Positions 18,480 to 62,273 of a stretch of DNA of 64,000 bases are shown here, in pieces. The notes under the pieces were generated by a model. The model ran no database searches. It worked only from the letters and a program-made list of their open reading frames with translations, and was not told the DNA's origin. Source of the DNA: Candidatus Aminicenantes bacterium (lineage in GTDB: Bacteria; Acidobacteriota; Aminicenantia; S016-38). The translations under genes and the position numbers were made by a program. The stretch is from NCBI GenBank assembly GCA_027025175.1, contig JALVRF010000127.1, positions 16,140 through 80,139 of the forward strand, given 5' to 3'. Position 1 is the stretch's first letter; every line of letters begins with the position of its first letter.

Positions 18480-18498
18480 ATACGTATTTCCGTATAAT
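18480..18498 (+). promoter_or_regulatory. Inverted repeat ATACG-N6-CGTAT overlapping a TATAAT -10 6 nt upstream of the M1 peptidase ATG
   Basis: aTACGtatttcCGTATaat; TATAAT 18493..18498; ATG 18505; no SD. Confidence 0.4.
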
Positions 18499-18504
18499 TA
18501 GAAT

Positions 18505-20289
18505 ATGAGAAAACTAATCTTTTTCCTCGCTCCCCTTCTTCTATTTTCCGGGGTCATATCCTATAAAATGGAAGTGGCCCTGGAAATAAAGGGAAGGTAT
18601 AAGGTCTTTGTAAAGGGAAGGGAAATTATTCAATGGGAAAATAACGCTCAGGTCCCGGTAGAGAGAATTCCCTTTCATCTTTATCAAAACGCCTTCAGGA
18701 AGGGCTCCTCCTTTATGAAGGAAATTGGAGGACTTCCCCGAAAATGGAAAAAACACAAAGAATGGTGGGGAAAGGAAGAAATTAAAAGGATAACGGTAAA
18801 TGGAAATGACCTCACCGGAACCCTAAAGTTTACACAACCTGATGATGGGAACTCTGAGGATAGAACTGTGGCGGAAATCACCCTTCCAGAGCCGGCAGAA
18901 CCCGGGGATCAATTGACCATTGAGGTGGAGTTTACAACCAAACTGCCCAAGGTCTTTGCCCGTTCCGGCTCAGGTGTCGGATATTATTTCGTGTCCCAGT
19001 GGTTTCCCAAACCCGGAGTTCTCCTTGACGACGGGAAATGGGTATGCCATCAATATCACAGGAACGGGGAATTCTTTGCGGACTTCTCAACCTATGAAGT
19101 TAAAATTAAAGCCCCATCCGACCTTGTTGTAACGGCCAATGGGGAACTGGTGAAACAGGAAAAGTCAGGGAAAAATCAGAGCCTTCTCTTCCGCCAGGAA
19201 CGGGTTCACGACTTCGTATGGGTAGCGGATAAGGACTTTATAAAGGTGGAAGACAGGTTTTCCTCTCCCAAGCAGCCAGAGGTAAAAATTCTCCTTTTCA
19301 TTCAGCCGGACCACCTCAGGCAGAAGGGAAGATATCTTGAAGCCATAAAGAGAGCGTTGAAGTTCTATTCCGAAAAAATAGGCCCCTATCCCTACAAAAG
19401 GATAACTATCATAGATCCTGACATCTCGGCCATGAGAACCTCAGGGATGGAATACCCCACCCTTATAACAGGGGGAAGCCTGTATCTTCTTCCTAAGGGG
19501 ATAAAATTCACGAAGGATGTTACCATCCACGAGTTCGGCCATCAGTACTGGTACGGGGTGGTGGCAAACAACGAGACCGACGAAGCCTGGCTCGACGAAG
19601 GAGTTAATACTTTCTTTGAGGAGAATATCATGGACACCTACCCATGGTTTTTTGACATCCTGGGATACAGAGCCAGGGACAGCGAAAGGTTGAGACTCGG
19701 ATACATAAAATCCACCTATGCGGACCCCATAATTACCCCCTCATGGAAGTTCTTTCCTGGAACCTATTCCGCCAATGTTTACACAAAGACGGCCCTTACC
19801 CTTGAAACATGGAAAAGGCTTGTAGGGGAAGACAAGTTCTTCTCAGCCCTTAGCGAATATTACAGAAAATACGCCTTTTCCCATCCCACCTCCTCGGACT
19901 TCTTCAACACCGTGCAGCAATACCTGGGGGATTGGTCAGGGCTCTGGAAACCCATGTTCTACCGGGCTGGAAAGGTAAACTGGAAGGTTTACGGGGTCTG
20001 GGGCAGGGAGGTCATCCTGCTCAGGCAGGGCCTTGATGTGGAGGTGCCGGTGGAAGTGGAAGTTGAAACCCAGGATGGTAAGAAACACAGTTTCGTGTGG
20101 GAGGGCAAATGGTTGAAAAAAAACTTCGGGAAAAAGGTTGTTAAGGTGAGCATAGACCCCAAGGAAAAACTCATGATTGATGCCAATCCCTTTGACAATC
20201 GCTGGTCCAGGAAATCTTCCATCCCCTCGCGCCTCGCCTGGCGTTTTCTGGTAAACATTCAGGCCATATTTTTGAATTTATTACCTTAG
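18505..20289 (+). CDS. Secreted M1-family zinc metallopeptidase (aminopeptidase N-like, short form)
   Basis: Signal peptide, and HEFGHQYWYG...WLDEGVNTFFE matching HEXXH-X18-E. Confidence 0.75.
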   Translation: MRKLIFFLAPLLLFSGVISYKMEVALEIKGRYKVFVKGREIIQWENNAQVPVERIPFHLYQNAFRKGSSFMKEIGGLPRKWKKHKEWWGKEEIKRITVNGNDLTGTLKFTQPDDGNSEDRTVAEITLPEPAEPGDQLTIEVEFTTKLPKVFARSGSGVGYYFVSQWFPKPGVLLDDGKWVCHQYHRNGEFFADFSTYEVKIKAPSDLVVTANGELVKQEKSGKNQSLLFRQERVHDFVWVADKDFIKVEDRFSSPKQPEVKILLFIQPDHLRQKGRYLEAIKRALKFYSEKIGPYPYKRITIIDPDISAMRTSGMEYPTLITGGSLYLLPKGIKFTKDVTIHEFGHQYWYGVVANNETDEAWLDEGVNTFFEENIMDTYPWFFDILGYRARDSERLRLGYIKSTYADPIITPSWKFFPGTYSANVYTKTALTLETWKRLVGEDKFFSALSEYYRKYAFSHPTSSDFFNTVQQYLGDWSGLWKPMFYRAGKVNWKVYGVWGREVILLRQGLDVEVPVEVEVETQDGKKHSFVWEGKWLKKNFGKKVVKVSIDPKEKLMIDANPFDNRWSRKSSIPSRLAWRFLVNIQAIFLNLLP

Positions 20290-20299
20290 GAGAGTAAAA

Positions 20300-21097
20300 A
20301 TGAAGGGAATATTAAACTATCTGGAAGGTTTAAAGGAAGCGGCCTGGGAATTGAGGTATAGTTTTTACATATGGCTTCTATCCCTGGGGTTTTCCCTTTC
20401 ACTTTACATTCCCGTGACGAAATTCTTCTCACGGAGACTGGGACACTTCGCCGACTGGGCCTATCTTAAAGAACATCCCGCTTACATATCCCTGCTCTAT
20501 TCCAATTCGGGACTTCTCCTTTCCTTCATGCTCTCGCTGTTTCTCATTTTCTACATAGCCAGTTTGATCGTGGAGGGGGGAATCTGGGCTGGAATTTTGA
20601 GGAGGGAACCCTTTTCCTACTGGAGACGGTATTTTTCAAGGTTTTTTTTCCTTGAAATTCTTACCCCAATAGTTTATCTGCCCTTTTTGGCCATAGGAGG
20701 GATTTTAGCCCTTCTTTTAAAACCAATCCCCTATTATCATGAAAAGGTCTTCTCCTGGGCAGTTATGGGTTACATTTTTGTCCTGATATTTCTCATTTTC
20801 CTGGCTTCTGTTACAAAGGATTACGCGAAGATTTCCGTGATAAGGGATAATTCTTCATGCCTGAAGGCTATATTCCACGCCTGGAAGGTAGGGTTCGGTC
20901 GGTGGTTTTCCTCTGCAATTATGGGAATCATTGCCTTCGTTCTCTGGGCTGTTCCCTTTTTCCTGTTTAAGGACCTGCTATCCTCCCTGCCATCCTTTCT
21001 CTTTTTCCTCCTCCTTCAGATTCCGCTACTTTTAAAAGCCTATACGAGGGTTGCCCTTTTCTACGGTGAGAAATACCTGAGCCGGGACTTTTTCTGA
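20300..21097 (+). CDS. Polytopic membrane protein of unknown function
   Basis: 265 aa with about 6-7 hydrophobic segments and no recognisable motif. Confidence 0.45.
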   Translation: MKGILNYLEGLKEAAWELRYSFYIWLLSLGFSLSLYIPVTKFFSRRLGHFADWAYLKEHPAYISLLYSNSGLLLSFMLSLFLIFYIASLIVEGGIWAGILRREPFSYWRRYFSRFFFLEILTPIVYLPFLAIGGILALLLKPIPYYHEKVFSWAVMGYIFVLIFLIFLASVTKDYAKISVIRDNSSCLKAIFHAWKVGFGRWFSSAIMGIIAFVLWAVPFFLFKDLLSSLPSFLFFLLLQIPLLLKAYTRVALFYGEKYLSRDFF

Positions 21098-21101
21098 GTT
21101 A

Positions 21102-21107
21102 TATAAT
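21102..21107 (+). promoter_or_regulatory. -10 hexamer (TATAAT) 6 nt upstream of the znuA-like ATG, leaderless-type
   Basis: TATAAT-aaacct-ATG (21114); no SD. Confidence 0.4.
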
Positions 21108-21113
21108 AAACCT

Positions 21114-21887
21114 ATGAAAAAGGTCGTCTTTTTTCTTTTCCCCCTGGTTCTCTTCGCTCAGGTTGCCGTTTCCATAAAGCCCCTGGCCCTGGTAATGAAG
21201 GAACTCTATCCAGGAAAGGTAATGGTTGTCGTTCCTCCAAACCGCTCCCCTCATGTTTTCTCCCCCAGCCCGGGGAAAGTGAAGGAGATATTAAGGGCAA
21301 AGGTTCTGTTCAAAATAGGGGCTGGACTTGAGCCCTGGAGAATTCCTTCGGTAAGGGAAGTGGAACTTTCCACCGTCGTCTCCCTGATTTCAAGAAATGG
21401 AAAGCCCAACCCCCATTTCTGGCTTTCCCCAAAAAGGATGCTGCAGGCCCTTGATTTGATGGAAAAAACCCTGGAGGAGACCTTTCCTGAACTGAAGGAA
21501 GAAATAAGGAGGAGGACCAAAAAGGAAAGGAAAGAACTTCAGGCCCTGGACAACAAAATAAAGGCAATACTTTCCCCGGTAAGGGGAAAATTCCTGGTTC
21601 TTTACAGACCTGCTTGGTTATATTTAGCGGAAGACTATGGTTTCCCTGACCCTGTAATCCTGACTTCGGACCCATCTCGCCCCCCATCCCCCACAAAACT
21701 AAGAAAAATCAAGGGGGATCTCCTTATTTGTGACCCTTCCCTCCCCCGCGAGAAGGCCAGGATGCTTTCCCGATGGCTGAACATCCCCTTTGTTTATATG
21801 GACCCCCTGGCCAGTCTTAGGGATTACTCATCTTACAGTGAATTTCTCCTAGAAAATGTCAGAAATTTAGCAGGAGCCCTTCAATGA
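21114..21887 (+). CDS. Metal (Zn/Mn) ABC transporter substrate-binding protein, TroA/ZnuA-like
   Basis: Signal peptide and cluster-9 SBP pattern; followed by ABC ATPase and permease genes. Confidence 0.6.
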   Translation: MKKVVFFLFPLVLFAQVAVSIKPLALVMKELYPGKVMVVVPPNRSPHVFSPSPGKVKEILRAKVLFKIGAGLEPWRIPSVREVELSTVVSLISRNGKPNPHFWLSPKRMLQALDLMEKTLEETFPELKEEIRRRTKKERKELQALDNKIKAILSPVRGKFLVLYRPAWLYLAEDYGFPDPVILTSDPSRPPSPTKLRKIKGDLLICDPSLPREKARMLSRWLNIPFVYMDPLASLRDYSSYSEFLLENVRNLAGALQ

Positions 21888-23444: not shown

Positions 23445-23460
23445 GGAAAATCCGGGTTAA

Positions 23461-24098: not shown

Positions 24099-24107
24099 TG
24101 GTAGAAT
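24099..24107 (+). promoter_or_regulatory. Extended -10 element (TGgTAGAAT) 6 nt upstream of the ATG, leaderless-type promoter
   Basis: TGnTAGAAT at 24099..24107, then 6 nt, then the ATG at 24114. No SD. Confidence 0.4.
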
Positions 24108-24113
24108 TTGTTC

Positions 24114-24863
24114 ATGAGAAAGTTATTACCTTCTATCATCGCATTGTTTTTGGTTCTGCCGTTAAGGGCAGACATAGGTTTTGAATTTTTCGGTGGGGCT
24201 GGCGTGTGGTCTCTCAATCTTCTTAAAGGCAAAATTGAAAGTTTCGCCCGCGACAGAGTGGACGAGGTTTTGAAGGGTAAACTTGAAGATGAATACCCCC
24301 AACTGAGGGGAGCGGACTATCAGCATTCTGAAACTTTTTCTTCCGGTGGCGGGAGTTTCTCTGGAGGATTCAGGATTTATCCTGGCGGGAAAAATTCCGG
24401 ATTCAGCATCGGGGTCAGTTTTATAAGGCTCTCAATGGATGTAAGGGTTGACGGCAAGATAACTGTCACAAAAAGCAGTGATCGGGCCGAAATATCAGGA
24501 GGAGGAAAGGTGGTAATTAATTCCTATGGTGCCATGCTTTCACTGAGAGGGCTCCTTTTCCCCTCACTTCCGGTAACTCCTTATCTTTCCTTCGGATTAG
24601 GAGCCGGAACCCTTAAGGGGGAAATTTCCTATGAGGGAAAAGGCACTGTGTGGTATCAGGGAAATCAGGAGGATTTCAGCCAGAAGGAAACCAAGACCAT
24701 AGACCAGCTCAGGCAGGAGGAGGAAAATATTCCCAATCTCCTTCCCATGTTGCAACTGGGAATCGGAATAGACGGAAAGGTAGGCGGAGGCTTATCCTTC
24801 TTCGTAGAGGGCGGAATTCTCGACGGTTTCTATGTGGGCGGTGGTATGCTTTACAGGTTTTAA
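24114..24863 (+). CDS. Putative outer-membrane beta-barrel protein
   Basis: Signal peptide MRKLLPSIIALFLVLPLRA, Gly/aromatic-rich alternating strands, C-terminal ...GGGMLYRF. Confidence 0.5.
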   Translation: MRKLLPSIIALFLVLPLRADIGFEFFGGAGVWSLNLLKGKIESFARDRVDEVLKGKLEDEYPQLRGADYQHSETFSSGGGSFSGGFRIYPGGKNSGFSIGVSFIRLSMDVRVDGKITVTKSSDRAEISGGGKVVINSYGAMLSLRGLLFPSLPVTPYLSFGLGAGTLKGEISYEGKGTVWYQGNQEDFSQKETKTIDQLRQEEENIPNLLPMLQLGIGIDGKVGGGLSFFVEGGILDGFYVGGGMLYRF

Positions 24864-26212: not shown

Positions 26213-26250
26213 CTCCGGGTGTTATTATATCAAAAGAGATTATTTCAGCC

Positions 26251-36590: not shown

Positions 36591-36644
36591 CCGGCACCTC
36601 CTTTCCATATTTTTTATACGCTGAGCGTCCCTGGGAGTTCATGA

Positions 36645-36650
36645 TATCAT
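36645..36650 (+). promoter_or_regulatory. -10-like hexamer (TATCAT) 6 nt upstream of the nnr ATG, leaderless-type
   Basis: TATCAT then tatgat then the ATG at 36657. Embedded in the ATGATATCAT palindrome. Confidence 0.35.
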
Positions 36651-36656
36651 TATGAT

Positions 36657-40530: not shown

Positions 40531-40697
40531 CTGATTATGTACATTATCCAACCGAAAAGGATAGAACCCACCACCATCCACAGGAAGGATTTGAGGGCGT
40601 AAACAAGCCTCTCCTTTTTAGTCTCCTTCCTTATAATGGCAAGGTCCAGGGAGGCGGGAATTGAGAAAAGAAGAAGAACTAAAAGATAACTTTTCAT
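40527..40697 (-). CDS. Unannotated 56-aa membrane peptide MKSYLLVLLLFSIPASLDLAIIRKETKKERLVYALKSFLWMVVGSILFGWIMYIIR
   Basis: Its ATG overlaps the upstream gene stop (ATGA) and its TGA overlaps the aspS ATG (ATGA). Two hydrophobic segments. Confidence 0.4.
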   Translation of the reverse strand: MKSYLLVLLLFSIPASLDLAIIRKETKKERLVYALKSFLWMVVGSILFGWIMYIIR

Positions 40698-41059: not shown

Positions 41060-41105
41060 TAGCCTTTAATATAAACAAAAATTGCCCTGTTTTCAAGAAA
41101 AAGGC

Positions 41106-41111
41106 TAAAAT
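41106..41111 (+). promoter_or_regulatory. -10 hexamer (TAAAAT) 6 nt upstream of the ATG, leaderless-type; possible -35 TTGCCC 18 nt upstream
   Basis: TAAAAT then gatagc then the ATG at 41118. No SD. Confidence 0.4.
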
Positions 41112-41117
41112 GATAGC

Positions 41118-46933: not shown

Positions 46934-46939
46934 ACTTAA

Positions 46940-46945
46940 ATTATA
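46940..46945 (-). promoter_or_regulatory. -10 hexamer (TATAAT on the minus strand) 6 nt upstream of the ATG, leaderless-type
   Basis: Minus strand reads TATAAT-ttaagt-ATG (ATG at 46933). Confidence 0.4.
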
Positions 46946-46948: not shown

Positions 46949-47893
46949 TTACCTGGGGCTCTCCTGGATATCAAGAACCAGTGCCTCCAGCACCAGTTGA
47001 AAACCGAGAATAAGGGGAAGGACAGAAAGCATAACCGTTCCAGTGCTGGCAGGTACGCCGGTCCTCACGCTTTTTATCCAGTGGTATATACCGAAGAAAA
47101 ACCCCCAGGCCAGCAGAAGAAATCCCAGGAAGAGAAAAAGGGCAATGGGGGAAAAATCCCTCAGGACATATTTCTGGTAAACCCTGTAAAGAAATCTCTT
47201 CAGGAGCAACCAGGGGAAGGTTAACATTATGGACGAAATTTTTATGCCTGACTCCTCCTCACCGTAAATGGTGGGGATGGGAACATCTTTAACTCTATAG
47301 CGGAAAATGTTGAGGTTCACCAGCATGTCGTTTTCGAAGAAATAACCATTGTGAATTCTTTCCAGGGGAAGGGCTTTCAGGGCCCTGGAGGTTATGGCAG
47401 TAAAACCGTTCTGGGGATCAAATATGTGCCAGTAGCCTGAGGCGAGTTTAGTGAGGAAGGTAAGGATAATATTGCCCACAAGCCTTATGAAGGGCATTTT
47501 TTTAAGACTCCCCCCTTCCAGGAATCTATTCCCCTTGGCGTAGTCATATCCTTCCTTCACAATGGCCTCAAGTAGGTTGATCAGCCTATTCAGGGGCATC
47601 TGACCGTCTCCATCAACCTTGACCACGATATTGGCCCCCAATTCCATGGCCCTTTTATATCCCCTTTTTGTGGCCCCTCCCACCCCCAGGTTTTTCTCGT
47701 TTCTCAAAAGAATAACCCTGGGATCTCCCACAGCAGTGGCCTCGTGGGATGTCCCATCGGTGCTGGCATCATCCACCACTATAATAAAGTCCACGAATTC
47801 CGGCACATCCTTTATGACCCCACCTATAAATTTCTCCTCATTATGGGCGGGGATAACCACTGCTATTCTTCTCCCCTCAAACATCAAACCCAT
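46949..47893 (-). CDS. Family 2 glycosyltransferase (Dpm1/GtrB-like) with C-terminal TM segments
   Basis: VVIPAHNEE, VVDDASTDGT, DGDGQ. Confidence 0.8.
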   Translation of the reverse strand: MGLMFEGRRIAVVIPAHNEEKFIGGVIKDVPEFVDFIIVVDDASTDGTSHEATAVGDPRVILLRNEKNLGVGGATKRGYKRAMELGANIVVKVDGDGQMPLNRLINLLEAIVKEGYDYAKGNRFLEGGSLKKMPFIRLVGNIILTFLTKLASGYWHIFDPQNGFTAITSRALKALPLERIHNGYFFENDMLVNLNIFRYRVKDVPIPTIYGEEESGIKISSIMLTFPWLLLKRFLYRVYQKYVLRDFSPIALFLFLGFLLLAWGFFFGIYHWIKSVRTGVPASTGTVMLSVLPLILGFQLVLEALVLDIQESPR

Positions 47894-47900
47894 TTTAACC

Positions 47901-47929
47901 GTTTTTTATCAGAGGTTTCAACTCGTTTA
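47901..47929 (+). promoter_or_regulatory. Sigma70-like promoter TTATCA-N17-TATAAT for the porin-like gene (leadered, SD AAGGAGGTGG)
   Basis: TATAAT at 47924..47929; 29-nt leader. Confidence 0.35.
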
Positions 47930-53037: not shown

Positions 53038-53077
53038 TGTAAACCCCTGTTTACATGGGAGTGGGTGTAGTGTAAAC
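53038..53077 (+). promoter_or_regulatory. Operator-like palindrome TGTAAAC-N4-GTTTACA plus a third GTGTAAAC copy upstream of murB
   Basis: 53038..53055 is an inverted repeat. GTGTAAAC repeats at 53070..53077, 11 nt before the murB ATG. Confidence 0.35.
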
Positions 53078-53087
53078 TTTTTCTGAC

Positions 53088-53936
53088 ATGAAGAGATTTG
53101 AGAACCTGCCCCTCAGCAAATTTTCCCGTTTCCGGATCGGAGGGCCTGCCAGGGAAATAATAATCGCTGAAAATCGCAATGAGGTTCTTGAGGCCATGGA
53201 GGGAAATTTTTCCGTTTTCGGTGGGGGAACCAATGTCCTTTTCCCGGATGAGGGATTGGATAAAAGGGTTATCTTCTTTCAGGGGGGCGAATTCCATGTA
53301 GACGGGGAATGGATAATCTCAGACGCAGGGGTTGCCCTGGAGAAAATAATCGAGGCTTCCTTGAGGGAAGAACTCGCCGGGATTGAGAACCTGGCGGGAA
53401 TTCCCGGGACCCTAGGAGGGGCCATTTACGGGAATGCAGGAGCCTTTGGCTCTGAGATTGGCCCCCTGGTGAGGGAGGTGGAAGTGTGGAAGGAAGGGAG
53501 GGTCCATAGGATTAATAAACCCCAGTTCGGCTACAGAGACTCGATTTTCAAGAGGCAGGGAGGAATAATTCTCAGGGCGTGGCTGAAACTAAAAAGGGGA
53601 ACGGGAAGGGAAAGGAAAATAGCAGAGGAGAGGCTAAGGATAAGGGCCCGCAAGCATCCATCCTCGCAGGTTGCCTGTGCAGGAAGTTTTTTCAAAAACA
53701 TTCTTATGCCCGATGGCAGGAAAATTCCCGCAGGAAGGCTTCTGGAAGAGGTGGGGGCCAAGGGATTAAGGGTGGGCGGAGCAGGGGTATTTGAAAAACA
53801 CGCCAACTTCATCGTAAACACGGGAGGAGCCACGGCCAAGGATGTTATTCGCCTTTCTGAAATTTTAAAGGAAAGGGTAAGGGAAAAATTCGGCATAACC
53901 CTGCAGGAGGAGGTAATAATTGTTGAAGACCCTTAG
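53088..53936 (+). CDS. murB: UDP-N-acetylenolpyruvoylglucosamine reductase
   Basis: FAD-binding RIGGPA, GGGTN, short type-II MurB architecture. Confidence 0.85.
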   Translation: MKRFENLPLSKFSRFRIGGPAREIIIAENRNEVLEAMEGNFSVFGGGTNVLFPDEGLDKRVIFFQGGEFHVDGEWIISDAGVALEKIIEASLREELAGIENLAGIPGTLGGAIYGNAGAFGSEIGPLVREVEVWKEGRVHRINKPQFGYRDSIFKRQGGIILRAWLKLKRGTGRERKIAEERLRIRARKHPSSQVACAGSFFKNILMPDGRKIPAGRLLEEVGAKGLRVGGAGVFEKHANFIVNTGGATAKDVIRLSEILKERVREKFGITLQEEVIIVEDP

Positions 53937-54558
53937 AGTTTCCACCTTCGCCCCTCCAGGGGTATTCCACGGTTTCGGTACCCGGGATTTCACCTTGAAG
54001 GAGTTTGATGAAGAATTCAGATCTTATGACATTCTCCAACTAAAACAGGTTCACTCAACGAAAATTCTAGTGGAAGAAGAAGGTGAAGGGGACGGCCTTA
54101 TTTCAAGGAAAAGAGGCACGATTCTTGTAATAAAAACCGCCGATTGTATGCCTATATTTTTGGCCCACAGAAAAGGGGAAGTAATAGCTGCACTGCACGG
54201 AGGCTGGAGGGGATTATGTAATGGAATAATTCCCGCTGCGGTGAAGATGCTCCGGGAAATGGGCTTTTCCCCCTCGGAGATGGAGGCCGCCTTGGGGCCT
54301 TCCATTGGCCCTTGCTGCTATGAGGTGGGGGAGGAGGTTTTTGAATGTTTCCGGCAAAACAATCTCCCTTTTCTTCGCAGGGAAAAGAAACTTGACCTTC
54401 CCACCACAGCAGAACTTCATCTCAAAGAATCGGGAATAGAAAAGGTCCATTCCCTCGCTCTCTGCACCCGATGCCATCCATGGCTTTTTTATTCATACCG
54501 CAGGGGTGACAGAAAGGTTCGCATGTTTTCTTACATAGGGCTTCTTGAGATAAAATAG
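53920..54558 (+). CDS. pgeF: Peptidoglycan editing factor PgeF (YfiH/DUF152 laccase-like)
   Basis: LKQVHSTKI, TADCMPI, ALHGGWRG, CTRCH. Confidence 0.8.
   Translation: MLKTLRVSTFAPPGVFHGFGTRDFTLKEFDEEFRSYDILQLKQVHSTKILVEEEGEGDGLISRKRGTILVIKTADCMPIFLAHRKGEVIAALHGGWRGLCNGIIPAAVKMLREMGFSPSEMEAALGPSIGPCCYEVGEEVFECFRQNNLPFLRREKKLDLPTTAELHLKESGIEKVHSLALCTRCHPWLFYSYRRGDRKVRMFSYIGLLEIK
54551..54556 (+). promoter_or_regulatory. -10 hexamer (TAAAAT) 6 nt upstream of the ATG at 54563, leaderless-type
   Basis: TAAAAT-aggact-ATG. Confidence 0.35.
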
Positions 54559-54562
54559 GACT

Positions 54563-54940
54563 ATGAAGAAGAGGGAAAAGTACGACCACGCGGTCCTTGA
54601 AAAAAGAATAAAAAGGGAAGAACTTGAAGAGAGGCTCCGGCACATCTTCTTTCCCAAGGAAAAACGGGAAATTTTCGTGGTCATCCGCTTTCGCCAGGAG
54701 GACTCCCCCTCCTTTAAAAAGGCACTGGAGTGGGCAAAAAACTGGGAAAAATACTGGTATGAGGGGGAAGAAAAATGGAGGTGGCATTATCTCAGGTTTG
54801 AGAAAAATCAGGCAAAACCCATGAAGGAATTTTTTGATATAGTTCAAAATGTGGAGGAGGTGGAAGTTCTCGTAGAGGGGAAAAGAATACCCTATGGAAG
54901 GGACCTCTGGCTTCCCCTTTTCTGGTTTTATCTTCACTGA
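54563..54940 (+). CDS. Hypothetical protein (125 aa, K/E/W-rich)
   Basis: Clean ORF with a leaderless-type promoter; no recognisable domain. Confidence 0.45.
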   Translation: MKKREKYDHAVLEKRIKREELEERLRHIFFPKEKREIFVVIRFRQEDSPSFKKALEWAKNWEKYWYEGEEKWRWHYLRFEKNQAKPMKEFFDIVQNVEEVEVLVEGKRIPYGRDLWLPLFWFYLH

Positions 54941-54951: not shown

Positions 54952-55554
54952 ATGGACATGAAAAAAAAGAAAGGCAATGAGGAACTCCCGAGGGATCTGC
55001 GGGAATTGCTCCCTATTCTGGAAGCCAGATTTGAGGAATTGCAGAGGAAATTTGATAACTTTTTCCTGGGGCTCGAGAAACGTCCCCCTCTCAGGGAAAG
55101 GGACGATCTCCACAGAAGACTCCTGAAACTGGTGGACATAAAGGGTTACCAGTACAACTTCATCTATCGGGCAAAACAACTGATACTGAAATTTAACACC
55201 TATAACGCCATGTGGGAAAGAATGCTCCGCAGGCTGGAAGAGGGAGAGCCTCTGGAAAGGGTTAGAAGAATGGGGGCAGGTCTGAGAAGGGGCCGGGAAA
55301 AGAAACCGGAGGAGAAAAAGGAAAAGGATTGGCTGGAAGTTTCCTCCCCGGCTGAACTGGAAAAAAGTCTTGACCGCCTTTACGACTGGCTAAGAAGAGA
55401 AAGCGAAAAACGGGGAATGAATATCATGGACAGGGAGGCCTTCAAGAAAAAACTCCTGCCCCAACTCAGGGAAAAGGCCACAACCAATAAACTAAAGATG
55501 AAGGTAGACCTTTCCTCTGGTAAACCCAAGATAAAGATAAAGAAGGAAAAATGA
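54952..55554 (+). CDS. Hypothetical charged, probably coiled-coil protein (200 aa)
   Basis: SD-like GAGGAG upstream; its stop overlaps the kinase start (ATGA). Confidence 0.45.
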   Translation: MDMKKKKGNEELPRDLRELLPILEARFEELQRKFDNFFLGLEKRPPLRERDDLHRRLLKLVDIKGYQYNFIYRAKQLILKFNTYNAMWERMLRRLEEGEPLERVRRMGAGLRRGREKKPEEKKEKDWLEVSSPAELEKSLDRLYDWLRRESEKRGMNIMDREAFKKKLLPQLREKATTNKLKMKVDLSSGKPKIKIKKEK

Positions 55555-58400
55555 AGTGTTCCCTGTGTGGGCGAGAAAATCCGGAAGGCAGGTTTACCTG
55601 TAAGTTCTGCGGATTTCCCCTGAGGAGCATAGATAATCTTCCTCCGGGGGAAATATTAAAGGGAAGGTTTAAAATCCTGAGTTTTCTGGGCAAAGGTGGA
55701 ATGGGGGTGATATACAGGGCAATGGACCTCAAACTTAACAGGGTTGTAGCCGTTAAAATCCTCCCCCTGGAACTTAAGGCAGATGAAAAGGCCAGGAAGA
55801 GGTTTCTCAGGGAAGCTCAGGCAGCAGCAAGACTGGAGCACCCCAACATATGCACCATCCACGAAATTTACGAAAGCGACGACATAGACTTTATAGTTAT
55901 GCCGTACATAGAGGGGGAAAATCTTCAGAGAGTTCTGAGGAACAAGGGGCCTTTTTCCCTGGAGGAATTTCTCCATTACGCCAGGCAGATGGCCTCTGCC
56001 CTCTCAGCGGCCCACAACAAGGGGATTATCCACCGGGATATAAAACCCTCTAACATAATGATCACCAGGGAAGGCCTGGTAAAGATTCTTGATTTTGGAC
56101 TGGCGAAATTTACTGGAGCAGAGGAATCCCTCACCTCTGCCGATGTGGTGGTGGGAACCCTGGCTTACATGTCCCCGGAACAATGCCGGGGGGAAAAATT
56201 AACCCCTGCTTCGGATGTTTTTTCCATGGGAATAGTCTTCTACGAGATGCTCACAGGTGAAAATCCCTTCCGGGGAGAAGATACTGGCTCCACATTCTAC
56301 AAATTACTTCACGAGGACCCTCCCCCTCCTTCCCATAAAAAGCAATTGCCTCCGGAACTGGACAGGGTGTTAATGAAGGCCCTGGAAAAGGAGCCCTCTA
56401 AAAGGTACAGGGATGGAGGGGAACTCCTGAAGGCCCTGAGCGAGATTAGGGGAGATGGGACCCTGGAACTCCAGCCCACCATGGTTACCCCGGCCCCGCC
56501 ATCAAAGAAGGAAAGACGGAGTAGAAGATTTCTCTTTCTATCTGGATTAGCCCTTCTTATTGTCATCGCGGCAGGAGGGGTCTTTGCCCTCCTGAATTCC
56601 AATCACCATCCCCGCTCTGTGGTCATAAGGGATTTTCTCGGGGGAGCAGGAGTCTCAAGCGATGCGGTAAAGGCAGTTTCCTTCCTCCTGAAGAAAAAAC
56701 TTCTTCTCCTTCAGGATGTTACGGTCATAGACGAGGGAACATTCGTGGACCTGCGGAAAAGGTACAGCCTGGAACAATTATTTAAAAAGTTCAGGGTTAT
56801 AGGAATAATCTCCGGTAGCATAAAGAAATACGGGAAAATGGTGAGCCTTGAAGCCTCTCTTTCCAAGGGAGGAGAAAATTTTCCCATAACCATCTCCGGG
56901 GAAGGGGAGGGGTCAATTCTTCAGTTTCAGGTGGATTCCCTGGGTGAAAAACTGGCCTTGCTTCTTTCCCTGAAGTTTAGAAGAAAAGCAAAGGTAAGCG
57001 CCCTCACCACAGAGGATTATTCAGCACTTATTTCTTATATAAAAGCCAGGGAAGAATGGGAGAAGTTATCGGTCTCAAATGCTAGAAAATATCTCCTGAC
57101 GGCCCTCAGGCGGGATCATGAATTCCCCCTGGCCCATTTTCTCTATGCCAAGGTTCTGGTGTTTCTGGACAGGATAGATGAGGCAAAAAAACAGGTGAAA
57201 CTTGCCCTGGCCGGCAGAGATAGAATGCTGGACCTGGACCTCTGGAGGGCTGAGGCATTAAAAGCAGAGCTCCACATGAAATTCAAGGAAAAAATAAGGT
57301 TTCTGGAAAGGGTAAGGGAAATGGCTCCCTACGATAAACACTCCTATTATGACCTGGCAGAGGCCTATTTCCACCGGGCCTCCCCCAGAAGGGCAATAAC
57401 TTATTATGAGAAGGCCTTGCAGTTGAAGGCCGACTATCTTCCAGTCCTCAATCACCTGGGTTATTGTTATCTTTACATAGGGGAGCATCTTAAGGGGATC
57501 CAGTATTTCGAAAAATACAAACTGCTTAGCGGAGAGGCCAATGCCTTTGATTCTCTGGGGGATGGATATTTCTATTCAGGGAATTACCTGGAAGCCATCA
57601 CCAGCAAGGAAACCGCCTTAGAGAAGGACCCTACCCTCACCTGGATTTATCACAGTTTGGCCTATATTCTTTTCATAAAAGGGGATATATCCAGGGCCTT
57701 CAATTATAATTCCCTCTACCTTTCCAGGGTAAGGGACAAAAAATCCATGGCCAGGGGATATATGCAGAGGGCCTATTTCAAATTGGAACTGGGCCGCCTG
57801 GGAGCTGAGGCAGACATCCGCAAAGCCATCTCCACTTTTGATCCCAGGGAGCCCCATATTTTAATACCGGAACTTCACTGGATAGCCCTTCAGATTTATA
57901 TAAGGGAAGGGAAAATAAAGGAAGCCTGCGAGCACCTCAAGTGGATGGAAAAGGTGGTGAGGGAATACTCTGTAAACCAGGAAAATTATTTCCCTATTTA
58001 CAAATATTACCTCCACGGGAAAGCCGAATGTTTACTCGCCAGAGGCGACAGGAGGGGACTTACCTATTACGAAAAACTCATGAAAATCAAAGAAAAACTC
58101 GGGTACTGGGCAACCCCCTTTGAACGGGGATTCTTTACAGGAAAAAAGGCCCTGGCGGAGATAAAGATGGGAAAATTGTCCGGCGCGGAGATAAGCCTCA
58201 GAGATGGTTTCTCCTACAATCCCAATCATCCACTTCTTCTCCTGGCCAGAATTTTTCTTCTCAAAAAGGAGGGGAAATTTGAGGAGGCCAGAAGAAGAAC
58301 TGAAGAACTTTTAAGTTTCTATCGTTCCTATCCTCCGGCGGACAGGGACTTCCTCAACATTGTCAAGGAGAAAATAAAGAAAGCGCCTGGGGGGATTTGA
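55551..58400 (+). CDS. Ser/Thr protein kinase: N-terminal zinc-ribbon, kinase domain, one TM helix, C-terminal TPR array
   Basis: CSLCGREN...CKFCGF; GKGGMGVIYRA, VAVK, HRDIKPSNIMI, DFG, SPEQ; a hydrophobic stretch at about aa 330; TPR repeats after that. Confidence 0.8.
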   Translation: MKCSLCGRENPEGRFTCKFCGFPLRSIDNLPPGEILKGRFKILSFLGKGGMGVIYRAMDLKLNRVVAVKILPLELKADEKARKRFLREAQAAARLEHPNICTIHEIYESDDIDFIVMPYIEGENLQRVLRNKGPFSLEEFLHYARQMASALSAAHNKGIIHRDIKPSNIMITREGLVKILDFGLAKFTGAEESLTSADVVVGTLAYMSPEQCRGEKLTPASDVFSMGIVFYEMLTGENPFRGEDTGSTFYKLLHEDPPPPSHKKQLPPELDRVLMKALEKEPSKRYRDGGELLKALSEIRGDGTLELQPTMVTPAPPSKKERRSRRFLFLSGLALLIVIAAGGVFALLNSNHHPRSVVIRDFLGGAGVSSDAVKAVSFLLKKKLLLLQDVTVIDEGTFVDLRKRYSLEQLFKKFRVIGIISGSIKKYGKMVSLEASLSKGGENFPITISGEGEGSILQFQVDSLGEKLALLLSLKFRRKAKVSALTTEDYSALISYIKAREEWEKLSVSNARKYLLTALRRDHEFPLAHFLYAKVLVFLDRIDEAKKQVKLALAGRDRMLDLDLWRAEALKAELHMKFKEKIRFLERVREMAPYDKHSYYDLAEAYFHRASPRRAITYYEKALQLKADYLPVLNHLGYCYLYIGEHLKGIQYFEKYKLLSGEANAFDSLGDGYFYSGNYLEAITSKETALEKDPTLTWIYHSLAYILFIKGDISRAFNYNSLYLSRVRDKKSMARGYMQRAYFKLELGRLGAEADIRKAISTFDPREPHILIPELHWIALQIYIREGKIKEACEHLKWMEKVVREYSVNQENYFPIYKYYLHGKAECLLARGDRRGLTYYEKLMKIKEKLGYWATPFERGFFTGKKALAEIKMGKLSGAEISLRDGFSYNPNHPLLLLARIFLLKKEGKFEEARRRTEELLSFYRSYPPADRDFLNIVKEKIKKAPGGI

Positions 58401-58456: not shown

Positions 58457-58457
58457 T

Positions 58458-59684
58458 TTATTTTTCCGAAGACCACAGTTGCATTAATTTTATCAGAAGA
58501 TCCACCGCCTTCTCCATGTCCTGAAGGGAAATCCATTCCTGGCGGGAATGGAAATTATGCCCACCGGTGAAGAGATTGGGGGTCAGGAGCCCCTTATAGG
58601 AAAGCATGGCCCCGTCGGTGCCGCCTCTTATACTGGTTCTCCTGGGTTCAATCCCCACTTCCTTGGCTGCCCTTATGGCAAGGTCCACCACCCGGGGCTC
58701 TTCCTGAAGTTTGTATTTCATGTTCCTGTATTGTTCTTTGATTTCCAGGGAAATCTCAGCCCTAGGATAATCCTTCCTTACAACTTCTATTATCTTCTTC
58801 AGGAGTTCTTCTATTTCCTTGAGTTCTTCCACCTCAAAGGCCCTGAATATAAATTCTACCTCTGCCCTTTCAACATTTCCCCTTATGTCCGTGGGATGGA
58901 GATAACCCTCCTTGCCCTCGGTGGTTTCAGGAGAGAGGGTAAAACGGGGCAGCCTGGAGACGATGTCCGAGGCAATCTTTATGGCATTGACCAGTTTTCC
59001 CTTGGCGTATCCTGGATGAACATTTACTCCCTTTATTATTACCTTGCCTGCGTCGGCTGAGAAGGTCTCGTCCTCAATTTCCCCCAGGGCCCCGCCATCC
59101 ACGGTATAGGCGAAATCGGCCCCGAATTTTTTCAGGTCAAACTTAACGGTTCCCCTGCCTATCTCCTCGTCCGGAGTAAAGGCAATCTTTATCTCGGGAC
59201 GGGGAATTTCAGGATGGGATAGCAGGTATTCAACGGCGGTGATTATCTCAGCAATTCCGGCTTTGTCGTCTGCCCCGAGGAGGGTGGTGCCATCGGTGGT
59301 TATTATTGTTTCCCCGACCTTTTCCTTTAGGTCCGGATTCTCCTCGACCCTAATAACCACTCCTTCCTTAAGGACGATGTCCTTTCCATCGTAATTTTCG
59401 TGAACTATGGGATTAACATTGGCTCCTGAAACATCCGGAGAGGTATCCATGTGGGCTATCAGGCCTATTTTATACTTTGAATCAGTATTGGAGGGCAGGG
59501 AAGCGTAAACATATCCGTACTGGTCCATCTCGGCCTCAAGTCCCATGGATTTGAGTTCCTCCACTAAAATCTTCCCGAGGTTCTTCTGTTTTTCCGTGGA
59601 GGGGATGGTCTCGGACCTGGGGTCCGACTGGGTGTCTACCCTCACATACCTCAAAAACCTGTCAAGCAATTTTCCGTATTTCAT
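58458..59684 (-). CDS. pepT: Peptidase T (tripeptide aminopeptidase, M20B)
   Basis: N-terminal FLRYVRVDTQSD, HMDTSPD, and the M20 metal ligands. Confidence 0.85.
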   Translation of the reverse strand: MKYGKLLDRFLRYVRVDTQSDPRSETIPSTEKQKNLGKILVEELKSMGLEAEMDQYGYVYASLPSNTDSKYKIGLIAHMDTSPDVSGANVNPIVHENYDGKDIVLKEGVVIRVEENPDLKEKVGETIITTDGTTLLGADDKAGIAEIITAVEYLLSHPEIPRPEIKIAFTPDEEIGRGTVKFDLKKFGADFAYTVDGGALGEIEDETFSADAGKVIIKGVNVHPGYAKGKLVNAIKIASDIVSRLPRFTLSPETTEGKEGYLHPTDIRGNVERAEVEFIFRAFEVEELKEIEELLKKIIEVVRKDYPRAEISLEIKEQYRNMKYKLQEEPRVVDLAIRAAKEVGIEPRRTSIRGGTDGAMLSYKGLLTPNLFTGGHNFHSRQEWISLQDMEKAVDLLIKLMQLWSSEK

Positions 59685-59693: not shown

Positions 59694-60881
59694 TTATTCA
59701 AAGGGCTTATAGGAAAGGGCCTCCTTTAAATTGTAAAAATCGCTTCCCTTGGCCACCAATCTCACCCTGGTTAACAGGGTCTCAGGATCTATTAACTCTT
59801 CAAAGGGAATTCCCTTTATGCCGAAATTGTCCGTGACAGAAACCATGTGCCCGAACTGCCCCCTCTTGTAAAGGATATACCCACCGTAACCCAGCATGGC
59901 TCCTAAAACTATGTCAAAACTAATGGGGGGAGCAGAGCGGGTTTCGTATCCTATCTGTCTTCCCACCACCTTCTTCTTTTTCCCGGTCTTATCCTGGTAT
60001 TTTAAAACCACCCTCTCGGCCAGGATTTTTCCTATCTCAGCAGCACCGTGAATTATGTTTCCGTGCTTATCCTTTTTCTTTGGTCTTAATTCCTTGGGGA
60101 GTTTCTCCGCCAGGCCCTCGGCCACGCAGATAACCCCGTAGAGTTTGTGTTCCCTTTCCCTCTGGAGAATAACTTCCACTATCCTCTCCGCCACATCGTC
60201 AATATTGAACTCTTCCCCCTCAAAATCCTCCCCGGAAAGCATCATCACCGCCTCCCCTGCTATTCCCGCAGCATAGGTAAGCCAACCACTCTTCCTTCCC
60301 ATTATTTCCACTATGAAATAGGCATCGGTAGCCTCAGCATCTGCCCTCAGGTTGAGGAGAAGCCTCCGGTAAATGTCCACAGCGCTCCAGTATCCGAAGG
60401 TCCAGGCAATACCGTAATAATCGTTGTCTATGGTTTTGGGGATGTGGATGACCGGGAAACCAAGGAGTCTTAGATAATTGGCAGTTTTAAGAGTATCATC
60501 CCCTCCCATGGTGAAAAGGGCCTCCACCCCCAAAAATTTAAGGGCTTCAATTATGTTAAGAAGAGGTCTTGCTTTCCTCCTGTCCTTCAGGTCCTCAGCA
60601 TTTTTTATGTTTCTCCCCGGGTTTGCCCTGGAGGTTTTTATATAAACCCCGCTACTGTGCCTGATTTTCGTAACCTCTCCGGTAAGTTCCTTATAATGAT
60701 AATCCTTAAGGAGGGATAGGGGGTCCCTGGGATTAAACTTCTCCAGGTATTCAAATCCCCGGATAAACCCCAGAACTGAAAAACCCTCATTTAAAAAACT
60801 AAGAGTCAGGGAGGATATAACGGAATTTGCCGCAGGAGCCGGCCCTCCGGAAAAAAGGATTCCTATTTTCTTCCTTTCCAT
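59694..60881 (-). CDS. 6-phosphofructokinase, probably pyrophosphate-dependent type
   Basis: KIGILFSGGPAPAAN, GGDDT, PKTIDND, IVEIMGRKSGW. The Asp in GGDDT and the Lys before TIDND are PPi-PFK hallmarks. Start at the ATG 60881 (MERKK) rather than the GTG at 60908. Confidence 0.75.
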   Translation of the reverse strand: MERKKIGILFSGGPAPAANSVISSLTLSFLNEGFSVLGFIRGFEYLEKFNPRDPLSLLKDYHYKELTGEVTKIRHSSGVYIKTSRANPGRNIKNAEDLKDRRKARPLLNIIEALKFLGVEALFTMGGDDTLKTANYLRLLGFPVIHIPKTIDNDYYGIAWTFGYWSAVDIYRRLLLNLRADAEATDAYFIVEIMGRKSGWLTYAAGIAGEAVMMLSGEDFEGEEFNIDDVAERIVEVILQREREHKLYGVICVAEGLAEKLPKELRPKKKDKHGNIIHGAAEIGKILAERVVLKYQDKTGKKKKVVGRQIGYETRSAPPISFDIVLGAMLGYGGYILYKRGQFGHMVSVTDNFGIKGIPFEELIDPETLLTRVRLVAKGSDFYNLKEALSYKPFE

Positions 60882-60884
60882 GTT

Positions 60885-60890
60885 TATAAT
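60885..60890 (+). promoter_or_regulatory. -10 hexamer (TATAAT) 6 nt upstream of the mpl ATG, leaderless-type
   Basis: TATAAT-gatatc-ATG (60897). Embedded in the palindrome ATGATATCAT. Confidence 0.4.
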
Positions 60891-60896
60891 GATATC

Positions 60897-62273
60897 ATGA
60901 AATATCACATCATAGCAGTCTCCGGCACCGCCACCGCCACTCTCGCCAGCCTTTTAAAGGAGAAGGGAGCGAATATTAGCGGCTCGGATATTTCCTTTTA
61001 TCCCCCCATGGGGGAATTTGTAAAAGCCCTGGGAATAAAACTTTATGATGGCTTTTCCCGGAATAACATAGACCGTTCCCTTCCCTTGGACGGGGTGATC
61101 GTGGGAAATTTCGTCCCCTCCTCCAATCCGGAAGCGGAGAGAGCCATAGAACTGGGACTTGACCTTTTTTCTGTCCCGGAAGCCCTTTATCACTTCGCCA
61201 TGAGGGGAAAGGAAAGAATAGTGGTGGCAGGAACCCATGGAAAAACCACCACCACCGCCCTTCTGGCCTTCCTCATGGACAGAGCCGGGCTCAACCCTGG
61301 TTTTTTCATAGGGGGACTCCCTGTGGATTTTCCCTCCAGCGGAAGACTGGGGGACAATTGGTTCGTGGCTGAAGGGGATGAGTACGAAACTAGTTTTTTT
61401 GACAAGGGCCCCAAATTTTTTCACCTGTTTCCCAAATACCTTCTCCTTGGGCCCGTGGAAATGGACCACTACGACATATACGAAAACCTGAATGAACTGG
61501 AAAGGGTGTTTTCCCTTTTAGTCTCCATGGTACCATCTTCGGGCTTAATAGTGGCAGCAAATACCGAAACCAACAGGAGAATCCTCCAGAGAGCGAGGGC
61601 AAGGGTTATAGCCGTGCCCTCCAGGGAATGGAAACTTGAAGAAATCCGGAAAAGGGGAGAGGGCATGGTTTTAAGTTTTAAAACCCCTGGTGGAAGGGAA
61701 GAATTCTTCCATCCTGCCTTCTCCACCCCCTTGGCCAGAAATTTCTCCCTGGCCCTTCCCCTTCTTCTTGAAATTGGCTTGTCCCTTGGGTCCATAAAAA
61801 ATGGTTTAAAGGATTTCCGGGGGGTAAAAAGAAGGATGGAGATTCTTGGAGAAAACGAGAAGGTTAAATTCTTCACAGACTTCGCCCATCATCCCTCCTC
61901 TCTGGAATTGAACCTCAGGGACCTGAGAAAAAGATTTGAGGGGTGGAAACTCGTTGCCCTGGTGGAGCCTGCCAGTTGGACCATGAGGTCAGGGATATTC
62001 CAGAGCAGGCTTCCAGGGACCCTTTCCCCTGCGGATTCCGTAATACTGGCCCCTCCTCCTTCCTCAAAAATCAAAAAGGGAAGGGGGTTGGACAGGAGAA
62101 GGGTTGTGGAGGAATTGGGGGCCATGGGAAAGGAAGCCTTTGCCCCGGAAACCTGGGAGGAGGTTTACCGCAGGCTCCACCAGGTTTTAGGGGGAAAAAC
62201 CGTTATAGTTTTCTTTTCCAACGGGAATATTCAGGAAAAGGTTCAGAGGATTATAAGTCTTCTTTTTGAATAA
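60897..62273 (+). CDS. mpl: UDP-N-acetylmuramate:L-alanyl-gamma-D-glutamyl-meso-DAP ligase (Mpl) / MurC-family ligase
   Basis: Mur ligase P-loop VVAGTHGKTTTTALLAF, and GDNWFVAEGDEYETSFFDKGPKFFH resembling Mpl more than MurC. Confidence 0.65.
   Translation: MKYHIIAVSGTATATLASLLKEKGANISGSDISFYPPMGEFVKALGIKLYDGFSRNNIDRSLPLDGVIVGNFVPSSNPEAERAIELGLDLFSVPEALYHFAMRGKERIVVAGTHGKTTTTALLAFLMDRAGLNPGFFIGGLPVDFPSSGRLGDNWFVAEGDEYETSFFDKGPKFFHLFPKYLLLGPVEMDHYDIYENLNELERVFSLLVSMVPSSGLIVAANTETNRRILQRARARVIAVPSREWKLEEIRKRGEGMVLSFKTPGGREEFFHPAFSTPLARNFSLALPLLLEIGLSLGSIKNGLKDFRGVKRRMEILGENEKVKFFTDFAHHPSSLELNLRDLRKRFEGWKLVALVEPASWTMRSGIFQSRLPGTLSPADSVILAPPPSSKIKKGRGLDRRRVVEELGAMGKEAFAPETWEEVYRRLHQVLGGKTVIVFFSNGNIQEKVQRIISLLFE

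Follow-up and report, generated by a model that had tools for sequence, protein, structure and literature searches.

Start codons with an adjacent promoter-like hexamer in the window

The analysed window is a 64-kb stretch of contig JALVRF010000127.1 from a Candidatus Aminicenantes bacterium. It has a G+C content of 48% and contains about 60 protein-coding genes and three tRNA genes; the count is nearer 60 than the roughly 70 genes given in an earlier note on this DNA. The NCBI taxonomy lists Aminicenantes in a candidate phylum, and GTDB places them within Acidobacteria. Nine genes of the window share the same start architecture: a TANNNT-type hexamer at positions -12 to -7, a spacer of exactly six nucleotides (nt), and an ATG. 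The nine sites are listed with the coordinates and strand of the region, the gene product, and the hexamer-spacer-ATG sequence.

18493..18507 (+), M1-family peptidase (18505..20289; Pfam Peptidase_M1), TATAAT-TAGAAT-ATG
21102..21116 (+), ZnuA-like binding protein (21114..21887; Pfam ZnuA), TATAAT-AAACCT-ATG
24099..24116 (+), secreted or outer-membrane (OM) hypothetical protein (24114..24863), extended -10 TGgTAGAAT-TTGTTC-ATG
36642..36659 (+), Nnr (YjeF_N + Carb_kinase; 36657..38204), extended -10 TGaTATCAT-TATGAT-ATG
41082..41120 (+), DAO-family flavin adenine dinucleotide (FAD) oxidoreductase (41118..42245), TTGCCC-18 nt-TAAAAT (41106)-GATAGC-ATG
46931..46945 (-), sulfatase of the alkaline-phosphatase superfamily (45608..46933), TATAAT (46940)-TTAAGT-ATG
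54551..54565 (+), hypothetical protein of 125 amino acids (aa) (54563..54940), TAAAAT-AGGACT-ATG
60885..60899 (+), Mur-ligase family protein Mpl (60897..62273), TATAAT-GATATC-ATG
63478..63492 (-), second sulfatase, sulfatase B (62251..63480), TATACT-TATTTC-ATG

The earlier note had described the first eight sites as TAnnAT hexamers followed by six nt and an ATG, without a Shine-Dalgarno (SD) sequence, and this description holds. All eight sites are where it placed them, each ATG opens a long open reading frame (ORF), no SD match of at least 4 nt lies within 3-12 nt of any of the ATGs, and the extended TG reported for the OM protein gene (hexamer at 24102) is present as TGgTAGAAT. The sulfatase B gene is a ninth case, beyond the eight. 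Pfam assigns the families Peptidase_M1, ZnuA, YjeF_N with Carb_kinase, DAO, Sulfatase, and Mur ligase, and two of the genes have no family. The chosen ATG starts appear sound, because the Pfam domains begin close to the ATG (DAO at residue 5, Mur ligase at residue 2, ZnuA at residue 17 after a signal peptide) and because four of the proteins carry MRK/MKK signal peptides at their N-terminus. The gene calls of the source assembly match the chosen starts for the genes compared.

The hexamers are enriched at the six-nt spacer. The enrichment figures cover the 64-kb window, for which the gene set consists of 60-61 curated starts, part of them called manually. At spacer 6 there are nine TANNNT hexamers, compared to a mean of 1.5 at other spacers, and hexamers matching TATAAT in at least five of six positions occur nine times, compared to a mean of 0.63 elsewhere. 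Shuffling of the 40-nt upstream regions gives a mean of 1.46 at spacer 6, and none of 20,000 shuffles reached nine there. Nine occurrences at any of 35 spacers were obtained in 0.045% of the 20,000 shuffles (P = 4.5e-4 after allowing any spacer). The expectation of fewer than one such match by chance is thus correct for the strict hexamer (0.6) and too low for the loose TANNNT pattern (about 1.5). A test that is independent of the curated starts, using the first ATG of any ORF of at least 100 aa, has its peak at the same spacer, with seven hits compared to zero to four at the others among spacers 0-15. Strict combinations of a -10 hexamer, 6 or 7 nt, and ATG or GTG occur 34 times in 128 kb (both strands), and 11 of the 34 are exactly at gene starts.

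It could be argued that A/T-rich intergenic DNA and mis-called starts mimic a pattern, since TANNNT followed by 6 nt and ATG occurs 29 times on both strands of the window, mostly within genes, and since some start calls are manual. However, this explanation is countered by the shuffle and offset tests, the test independent of start calls, the Pfam and signal-peptide support, the assembly gene calls, and the conservation described below. Chance is effectively refuted already by the offset, shuffle, and conservation tests.

Four further genes have a similar promoter-like element with a longer spacer. Spacers of 6, 7, 8, and 9 nt are thus present at nine, two, one, and one genes, respectively, which corresponds to the 6-8 nt known from leaderless genes of Deinococcus and Mycobacterium.

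47882..47921 (-), family-2 glycosyltransferase (GT2; ATG 47884), TTGAAA-18 nt-TAAAAT + 7 nt + ATG
60879..60897 (-), phosphofructokinase (PFK; ATG 60881), TGaTATCAT + 7 nt + ATG
41057..41096 (-), DUF6677 protein (40694..41059), TTGAAA-17 nt-TATATT + 8 nt + ATG
53050..53090 (+), MurB (53088..53936), TTTACA-17 nt-TAAACT + 9 nt + ATG

The GT2 gene at 47884(-) is divergent from an SD-led gene at 47959(+). The source assembly's own call of PFK is likewise 395 aa long. The murB gene lacks an SD sequence, and its leader would be approximately 2-3 nt long.

All 13 candidates start with ATG, whereas the other 47 genes use 38 ATG, five GTG, and four TTG codons. An SD match of at least 4 nt is absent from 12 of the 13 candidates, in which the spacer is too short to contain one. 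Among the other genes, 28 of 47 have an SD match of at least 5 nt to AAGGAGGTGA at a distance of 3-12 nt, and 12 of the 47 have no SD match. About 9-13 of the approximately 60 genes (15-22%) would use the promoter-adjacent mode, and most of the others would depend on AGGAGG-type SD sequences. The proposal that two initiation modes operate side by side is borne out in that SD-less promoter-adjacent genes and SD-led genes coexist, but the genes do not simply fall into two classes, because the 12 without an SD match belong to neither. GeneMarkS-2 defines a group C of genomes by a Pribnow box about 10 nt from some starts and SD sequences at others, and the motif counts of the window, with 13 promoter-adjacent starts and 28 of 47 SD-led ones, correspond to this group. 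An Rfam search of the window returned only the three tRNAs; none of the sites gave a match to a riboswitch or a leader RNA.

Among the genes that lack both an SD sequence and a promoter next to the start is the TldD/PmbA-like gene at 26251(+) (26222-26253). Its leader is SD-less, and a TATTAT located 22 nt upstream is conserved; in relatives the gene has a 13-nt leader with GGGTGG. Another is the FtsX-like gene at 7775(+) (7740-7777), the start of which overlaps the preceding stop codon.

Hexamer and spacer in orthologous loci

A single scan of a species-level genome collection gave only one close genome, a metagenome-assembled genome labelled Candidatus Aminicenantes bacterium; its contig L001 is collinear with positions 31457-47706 of the window at 86.5% nucleotide identity. 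Further orthologous loci were obtained from metagenome and protein look-ups, and their distances are graded by protein identity to the window: 99% for L003; 88% for L014 and L015; about 82% for L021 and L022; 68-73% for L004, L005, and L016-L019; 66% for L006-L008; about 61% for L023 and L024; and 57% for L020. Loci L002 (Clostridia, 40% identity) and L009-L012 (26-35%) were left out of the footprinting as too distant.

Seven gene families, in which the proteins of the relatives are 49-92% identical to those of the window, were aligned on their ATGs. In the hexamer there is no change at positions -12, -11, -9, -8, and -7, and there are two changes at -10. In contrast, positions -6 to -1 of the spacer accumulated 4, 5, 8, 6, 6, and 4 changes, whereas the spacer length is fixed at six. 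The difference between two hexamer and 33 spacer changes has a binomial probability of approximately 2e-8, an estimate that ignores shared ancestry. The hexamers are under purifying selection at the DNA level. An invariant hexamer next to a freely drifting spacer is the mark that a sigma-70 -10 element and a discriminator of neutral sequence would leave, and not that of a ribosome signal acting at the RNA level.

The individual families illustrate this pattern. In L004 and L005 the znuA orthologues have TATAAT + TAATTT + ATG, with a spacer that differs from that of the window in sequence but not in length, and L005 has a 12-nt insertion 5' of the hexamer. The OM protein orthologues read TGgTAAAAT + CCACCC + ATG in L004 and TGtTAGAAT + TTTTCC + ATG in L005. 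The nnr genes of L001, L021, and L022 have TGnTATCAT + 6 nt with the spacers AGACTT and AGGCTT. At the FAD oxidoreductase genes of L021, L022, and L024 the hexamer is TAAAAT or TAGAAT and the six-nt spacers are GAATGC, GAAAGC, and GGATAT, and the TTGC -35 element 18 nt upstream of the -10 box is conserved. The orthologue of the sulfatase gene at 46933(-) in L001 has TATAAT + TACGCC + ATG. The mpl gene has TATAAT + 6 nt in L014, L015, and the non-syntenic L020, and TATAAT + 9 nt in L016-L019. The M1 peptidase orthologues of L004 and L005 have TATAAT + 9 nt + ATG. In sulfatase B orthologues the -10 box is kept and the spacer is 6-10 nt long (TATAAT + 8 in L016, TATACT + 9 in L019, TATACT + 10 in L018).

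The hypothetical gene at 54563 is the weakest of the cases. Its orthologues in L014, L018, and L019 have TAAAAT + 6 nt with the spacers AAGACT, AATCCC, and AGTCCC. The AGGA located 2 nt before the ATG in the window was considered as a weak SD sequence and rejected, as AGGA is absent from the orthologue spacers.

Three of the four elements with longer spacers are kept as well. TATyAT + 7 nt is present upstream of PFK in L015, L017, and L019, and TAAACT + 9 nt upstream of murB in L018 and L019. The DUF6677 orthologues of L021-L024 have TATATT + 6-8 nt + ATG or GTG, the latter in L023 and L024. Non-orthologous instances of the architecture are also present in the relatives: TATAAT + 6 nt + GTG at 1301(-) of L020, TATTAT + 7 nt at 11041(-) of L026, and TATAAT + 6 nt at 4335 of L008.

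The promoter-adjacent and SD-led arrangements are interconverted among more distant orthologues. In the M1 peptidase genes of L006-L008 the -10 box TTTCGTATAA is kept and is followed by a leader with AAGGAGG. In L024, the nnr gene retains TGtTATCAT ahead of a leader with GGAGGT, and in L023 it has GATATT/TATTAT at the place of the -10 box and a leader with AAAGGAGG. The SD-bearing leaders of these distant M1 peptidase and nnr orthologues are roughly 10-15 nt long, so the lineage of the window appears to have lost the leader at both genes. The orthologues illustrate, site by site, how easily a gene can switch between SD-led and leaderless arrangements with the same promoter, a trend that was described earlier in statistical terms (PMC3160421).

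Because the distant orthologues keep the -10 box before an SD leader, the hexamer is best understood as a promoter element rather than an RNA signal. The opposite view would be that the A/T-rich hexamer acts as an unstructured RNA signal, such as an S1-binding site or enhancer, within a longer leader, and not as a DNA promoter. For several phyla, signals of S1 or A/U-rich type have been suggested at non-SD genes; their positions overlap with those of Pribnow-like biases. However, the conservation at the sites studied here is position-specific and follows the TAnnnT pattern, with T-12, A-11, and T-7 invariant, and not that of a position-tolerant A/U-rich tract in a transcribed leader. The neighbouring six nt can be G+C-rich in orthologues (CCACCC, TACGCC, AATCCC), which disfavours an A/U-rich RNA signal. 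Several sites have, and conserve, an extended TGn motif or a -35 hexamer at 17-18 nt. In the distant orthologues with SD leaders, an RNA enhancer at the place of the hexamer would fall outside the transcript. An S1-type function of the hexamer is thus highly improbable.

Predicted leaderless mRNAs and their operon context

It is very likely, given the sequence comparisons, that sigma-70-type -10 boxes abut the ATGs of these genes and give rise to SD-less leaderless mRNAs, which would be produced beside SD-led ones. The promoters would be of the housekeeping-sigma (sigma-70) type, with the hexamer as their -10 element; some have an extended TGn motif and some a TTGnnn -35 element. An RNA polymerase holoenzyme bound to a -10 box at positions -12 to -7 would start transcription at, or within approximately 3 nt of, the A of the ATG, because of the position of the hexamer, and the resulting mRNA would contain neither a 5' untranslated region (UTR) nor an SD sequence. 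Ribosomes with initiator tRNA would then bind the 5'-terminal AUG directly. The proposal in the earlier note that the -10 box is placed for a start at the A of the ATG gains support from the orthologue comparisons. The motif, its position, its enrichment, its selection, and its interconversion with SD leaders are observed, and the site of transcription start and translation of the 5'-terminal AUG by the 70S pathway are inferred.

The promoters may be genuine and nevertheless initiate a few nt before the ATG, which would give leaders of 1-5 nt and make the six-nt spacing a matter of promoter mechanics only. Sigma-70 polymerase can start near the seventh base downstream of the -10 box with a variation of 1-2 nt, and some orthologues have spacers of 8-10 nt (9 nt in mpl and the M1 peptidase gene, 8 to 10 nt in sulfatase B, and a conserved 9 nt in murB). 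However, the spacer has a sharp mode at 6 nt (nine genes, compared to two at 7 nt, one or two at 8 nt, and one at 9 nt), so that the canonical +1 position is occupied by a purine, namely the first base of the ATG, and most orthologues hold the spacer at 6 nt despite sequence drift. Leaders of up to 5 nt are, moreover, normally classed as leaderless, and the study of Deinococcus discussed below speaks of no or a very short 5'-UTR (PMC12340547). It is therefore unlikely that short leaders are the better description of the sites in the window.

The operon context of the nine genes is divided. The claim that leaderless starts are concentrated at the first genes of operons is true for four of the nine, which are divergently transcribed first genes: the OM protein gene (24114, divergent from 24030(-)), nnr (divergent from an SD-led DUF4097 gene that starts at 36590(-)), the FAD oxidoreductase gene, and mpl. 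It fails for the other five, which follow a co-directional gene at a distance of 4-29 nt. The gap is 29 nt between the M1 peptidase gene (18505) and a beta-lactamase-fold gene, 16 nt upstream of the znuA-like gene (21114), 15 nt between the sulfatase gene at 46933(-) and the GT2 gene, and 19 nt between the sulfatase gene at 63480(-) and the gene of a 926-aa outer-membrane protein. At 54563 the upstream gene ends 4 nt before the ATG, and the hexamer overlaps its stop codon. The hexamers of the five intercistronic genes would be internal promoters with their -35 regions in the preceding coding sequence.

Several observations, beginning with these gaps, weigh against leaderless initiation as the full explanation. 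The five gaps leave no room for a terminator, so read-through transcripts would carry the downstream ORFs internally, and translational coupling on such transcripts could add to the expression of the five genes. Six of the nine promoters with a six-nt spacer have a poor match to the -35 consensus and no TGn motif. A scan of positions 17001-37000 for the generic sigma-70 -35/-10 consensus gave 23 sites, compared to 17.5 +/- 3.9 in shuffled sequences, and missed the leaderless promoters. It recovered only the promoter of the SD-led gene at 24030(-), which has a canonical TTGAAA-17-TAATAT upstream that is kept in L004 and L005. Such a scan is uninformative here, because most of the promoters lack a good -35 element. 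The predicted folding of the first 30-50 nt is not significantly weaker in the candidates than in the other genes (Mann-Whitney p = 0.17-0.67). The conservation of the hexamer at 54563 is ambiguous, because the hexamer also codes for the upstream gene. Because orthologues of mpl, the M1 peptidase gene, and sulfatase B have spacers of 8-10 nt, strictly zero-length leaders are not always kept; the term leaderless therefore shades into leaders of 1-4 nt in these orthologues.

It is possible to read the five intercistronic genes as depending for most of their expression on the transcript of the upstream operon, through termination-reinitiation or coupling, with the hexamer incidental or a minor internal promoter. 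The short gaps are in line with this, as is the fact that these five promoters have the weakest -35 matches and that one hexamer overlaps an upstream stop codon. However, the hexamer and the six-nt spacing are kept in orthologues while the surrounding gap changes, as exemplified by the insertion upstream of znuA in L005 and by the sulfatase spacers TTAAGT and TACGCC. The AGGA at 54563 is not conserved. In the L006-L008 orthologues of the M1 peptidase gene an SD leader follows the same -10 box, a sign that this box is a working promoter, and the architecture of the window is present at the four divergent genes, where coupling is impossible. Expression of the five genes mainly through the upstream transcript is quite unlikely, and the conservation of the hexamer favours a promoter for them as well, to which coupling may add.

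The promoter-adjacent starts of the window are an already described leaderless-mRNA architecture. A TANNNT motif approximately 12 base pairs (bp) before the start marks bacterial leaderless, or TA-led, genes, which were predicted in three of three Acidobacteria genomes, where they make up 9.7-19.4% of genes (Zheng 2011, PMC3160421). In group C of GeneMarkS-2, 6-8 nt separate the Pribnow box from the start, and other genes have SD sequences (Lomsadze 2018, PMC6028130). The window has the same signature, a TANNNT or Pribnow box near the start beside SD-led genes, at a frequency within the published range. It differs in that the two surveys, which do not name Aminicenantes, equate leaderless genes with first genes of operons, whereas here five of nine are located in gaps of 4-29 nt.

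In Deinococcus, a -10 motif located about 6-7 bp from ORFs was studied by mutagenesis, sigma-factor binding, and RNA-seq, and about one third of the ORFs of the Deinococcus-Thermus species D. radiodurans and T. thermophilus are involved (Life Sci Alliance 2025, PMC12340547). The likeness includes a TANNNT motif about 6-7 bp upstream, the absence of a ribosome-binding site (RBS), the coexistence of SD-led genes, conservation among orthologues, and occasional placement in or after an upstream ORF (PMC12340547). Whereas the Deinococcus system was validated by experiment, the one described here is known from sequence and comparison, and it involves about 15-22% of approximately 60 genes instead of one third. 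At its middle positions the hexamer is closer to TATAAT than in Deinococcus, as is expected at a G+C content of approximately 48%.

In mycobacteria and other actinobacteria, roughly one transcript in four has a transcription start site that coincides with the start codon (Cortes 2013, PMC3898074; Shell 2015, PMC4633059; P. acnes, PMC3848588). A 5'-terminal ATG or GTG suffices in mycobacteria, and 73% of leaderless genes remain so between M. smegmatis and M. tuberculosis. As in mycobacteria, leaderless status is kept here in most, but not all, orthologues. Unlike mycobacteria, which use both GUG and AUG, the window has ATG at 13 of 13 candidates, and GTG is found only in the relatives (L020 1301; DUF6677 in L023 and L024); phylum and G+C content differ as well. 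The leaderless mRNAs of E. coli, such as lambda cI and Tn1721 tetR, require a 5'-terminal AUG and no SD sequence; they are rare, inefficient, and mostly located in mobile elements. In contrast, the genes of the window are ordinary metabolic and envelope genes. A literature search found no paper naming both "leaderless" and "Aminicenantes".

Public gene calls near these sites are wrong in several cases, apparently because gene finders expect an RBS. The galU and nnr calls of relatives are cut to 259 aa and 490 aa, respectively. The DUF6677 call of L021 and L022 starts at a TTG inside the gene's own promoter, and the folE2 call (P0241) is extended to a GTG inside a tRNA gene, giving 264 aa instead of 258. 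The mis-called starts are located at L022 12109, L022 10001, L021/L022 16501/16455, and P0241. A rule of -10 box, 6 nt, and ATG corrects such starts and marks promoters and transcription units from the sequence of unculturable organisms. Mis-calling based on the RBS affects this candidate lineage and probably extends across Aminicenantes and their relatives. The current understanding of translation initiation is unchanged.

Divergent promoters and tRNA-ORF junctions

Two of the divergent gene pairs have closely packed promoters. The ATGs of mpl(+) and PFK(-) are only 15 bp apart (60879-60899), and their putative -10 boxes, 60885-60890 on the plus strand and 60889-60894 on the minus strand, overlap by 2 bp. 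In L016-L019 the gap is 18 bp. The pair would form a bidirectional promoter of the symmetric type, each arm of which would give a leaderless mRNA. Bidirectional promoters arising from the near-symmetry of the -10 element have start sites 7-25 bp apart, with a usual optimum of 18 bp, according to the account of Warman 2021 given in PMC10268837. The mpl/PFK pair resembles the class outlined there, as its opposite-strand -10 boxes overlap and its inferred starts, 16 bp apart, are within the 7-25 bp range (PMC10268837). One arm is often non-coding in that class, as far as this account describes it, whereas both arms of the mpl/PFK promoter would give leaderless mRNAs of housekeeping enzymes, with the ORFs 15 bp apart.

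DUF6677(-) and the FAD oxidoreductase gene(+) are separated by 58 bp of intergenic DNA (41057-41120), which is 100% identical in L001. It is entirely filled by two interdigitated promoters, TTGCCC-18-TAAAAT on the plus strand and TTGAAA-17-TATATT on the minus strand. The two promoters should be mutually exclusive, because the -35 element of one is positioned between the -35 and -10 elements of the other.

The nnr promoter contains a near-palindrome, TCATGATATCATTATGATATG (36630-36660), the ATGATATCAT core of which recurs at mpl/PFK. The mirror arm of the palindrome precedes a 36-codon minus-strand ORF at 36642 (CATAAT + 6 nt + ATG). This ORF is probably not a gene, and its ATG is lost in L021.

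Two tRNA genes are directly followed by protein-coding genes. The tRNA-Ala(CGC) gene (34484-34557, +) has its own promoter, TGaTATAAT at 34463-34471, approximately 12 nt upstream, and the ATG of galU (34565) is located 7 nt after the tRNA (CTTTAGC-C) without an SD sequence or a -10 box. The junction is kept in L001 and L021-L024 with SD-less trailers of 7-10 nt and variable sequence. It survives rearrangement, as glnA is present upstream of the tRNA instead of the gene of a 572-aa protein in two lineages. The tRNA-Arg(ACG) gene (2544-2618, -) likewise has its own TGgTATAAT promoter approximately 12 nt upstream (region 2527-2640). It is followed, after a U-rich trailer of 14 nt, by the ATG of folE2 (2529, -), the first gene of a folE2-folP-folK operon, in which the Pfam domain GCHY-1 begins at residue 1. 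The trailer is 15 nt long in L004, 18 nt in L005 and L025, and 8 nt, all T, in L026, and it never contains an SD sequence.

Both tRNA-ORF junctions are kept in four to five lineages. A classical leaderless start of galU and folE2 from a -10 box in the 3' part of the tRNA was considered and rejected, as no such box is conserved in the four to five lineages. A tentative possibility, and one that is less probable than the leaderless starts, is that excision of the CCA-less tRNAs would create the 5' ends of the galU and folE2 mRNAs. These mRNAs would then be near-leaderless and fed by processing, similarly to the tRNA punctuation of mitochondria. In a limited literature search, no bacterial precedent for mRNA 5' ends defined by tRNA excision was found.

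All three tRNA genes of the window are tightly joined to protein-coding genes. The third, tRNA-Arg(CCG) (58381-58460, -), starts 2 nt downstream of the stop codon that ends an M20 peptidase gene (58458..59684, -), and it shares 20 nt with the 3' end of a convergent gene of a 949-aa Ser/Thr kinase (55551..58400, +). This arrangement is kept in L016, L018, and L019. A conventional alternative to the tRNA-ORF fusions of the window is present in L020 (1301-1491, -), where the tRNA-Lys and tRNA-Glu genes precede a hairpin that resembles a terminator and has a T-run, then a tandem TATAAT, and the GTG of an Rrf2 regulator gene 6 nt after the second box, so that this layout also includes a leaderless GTG start.

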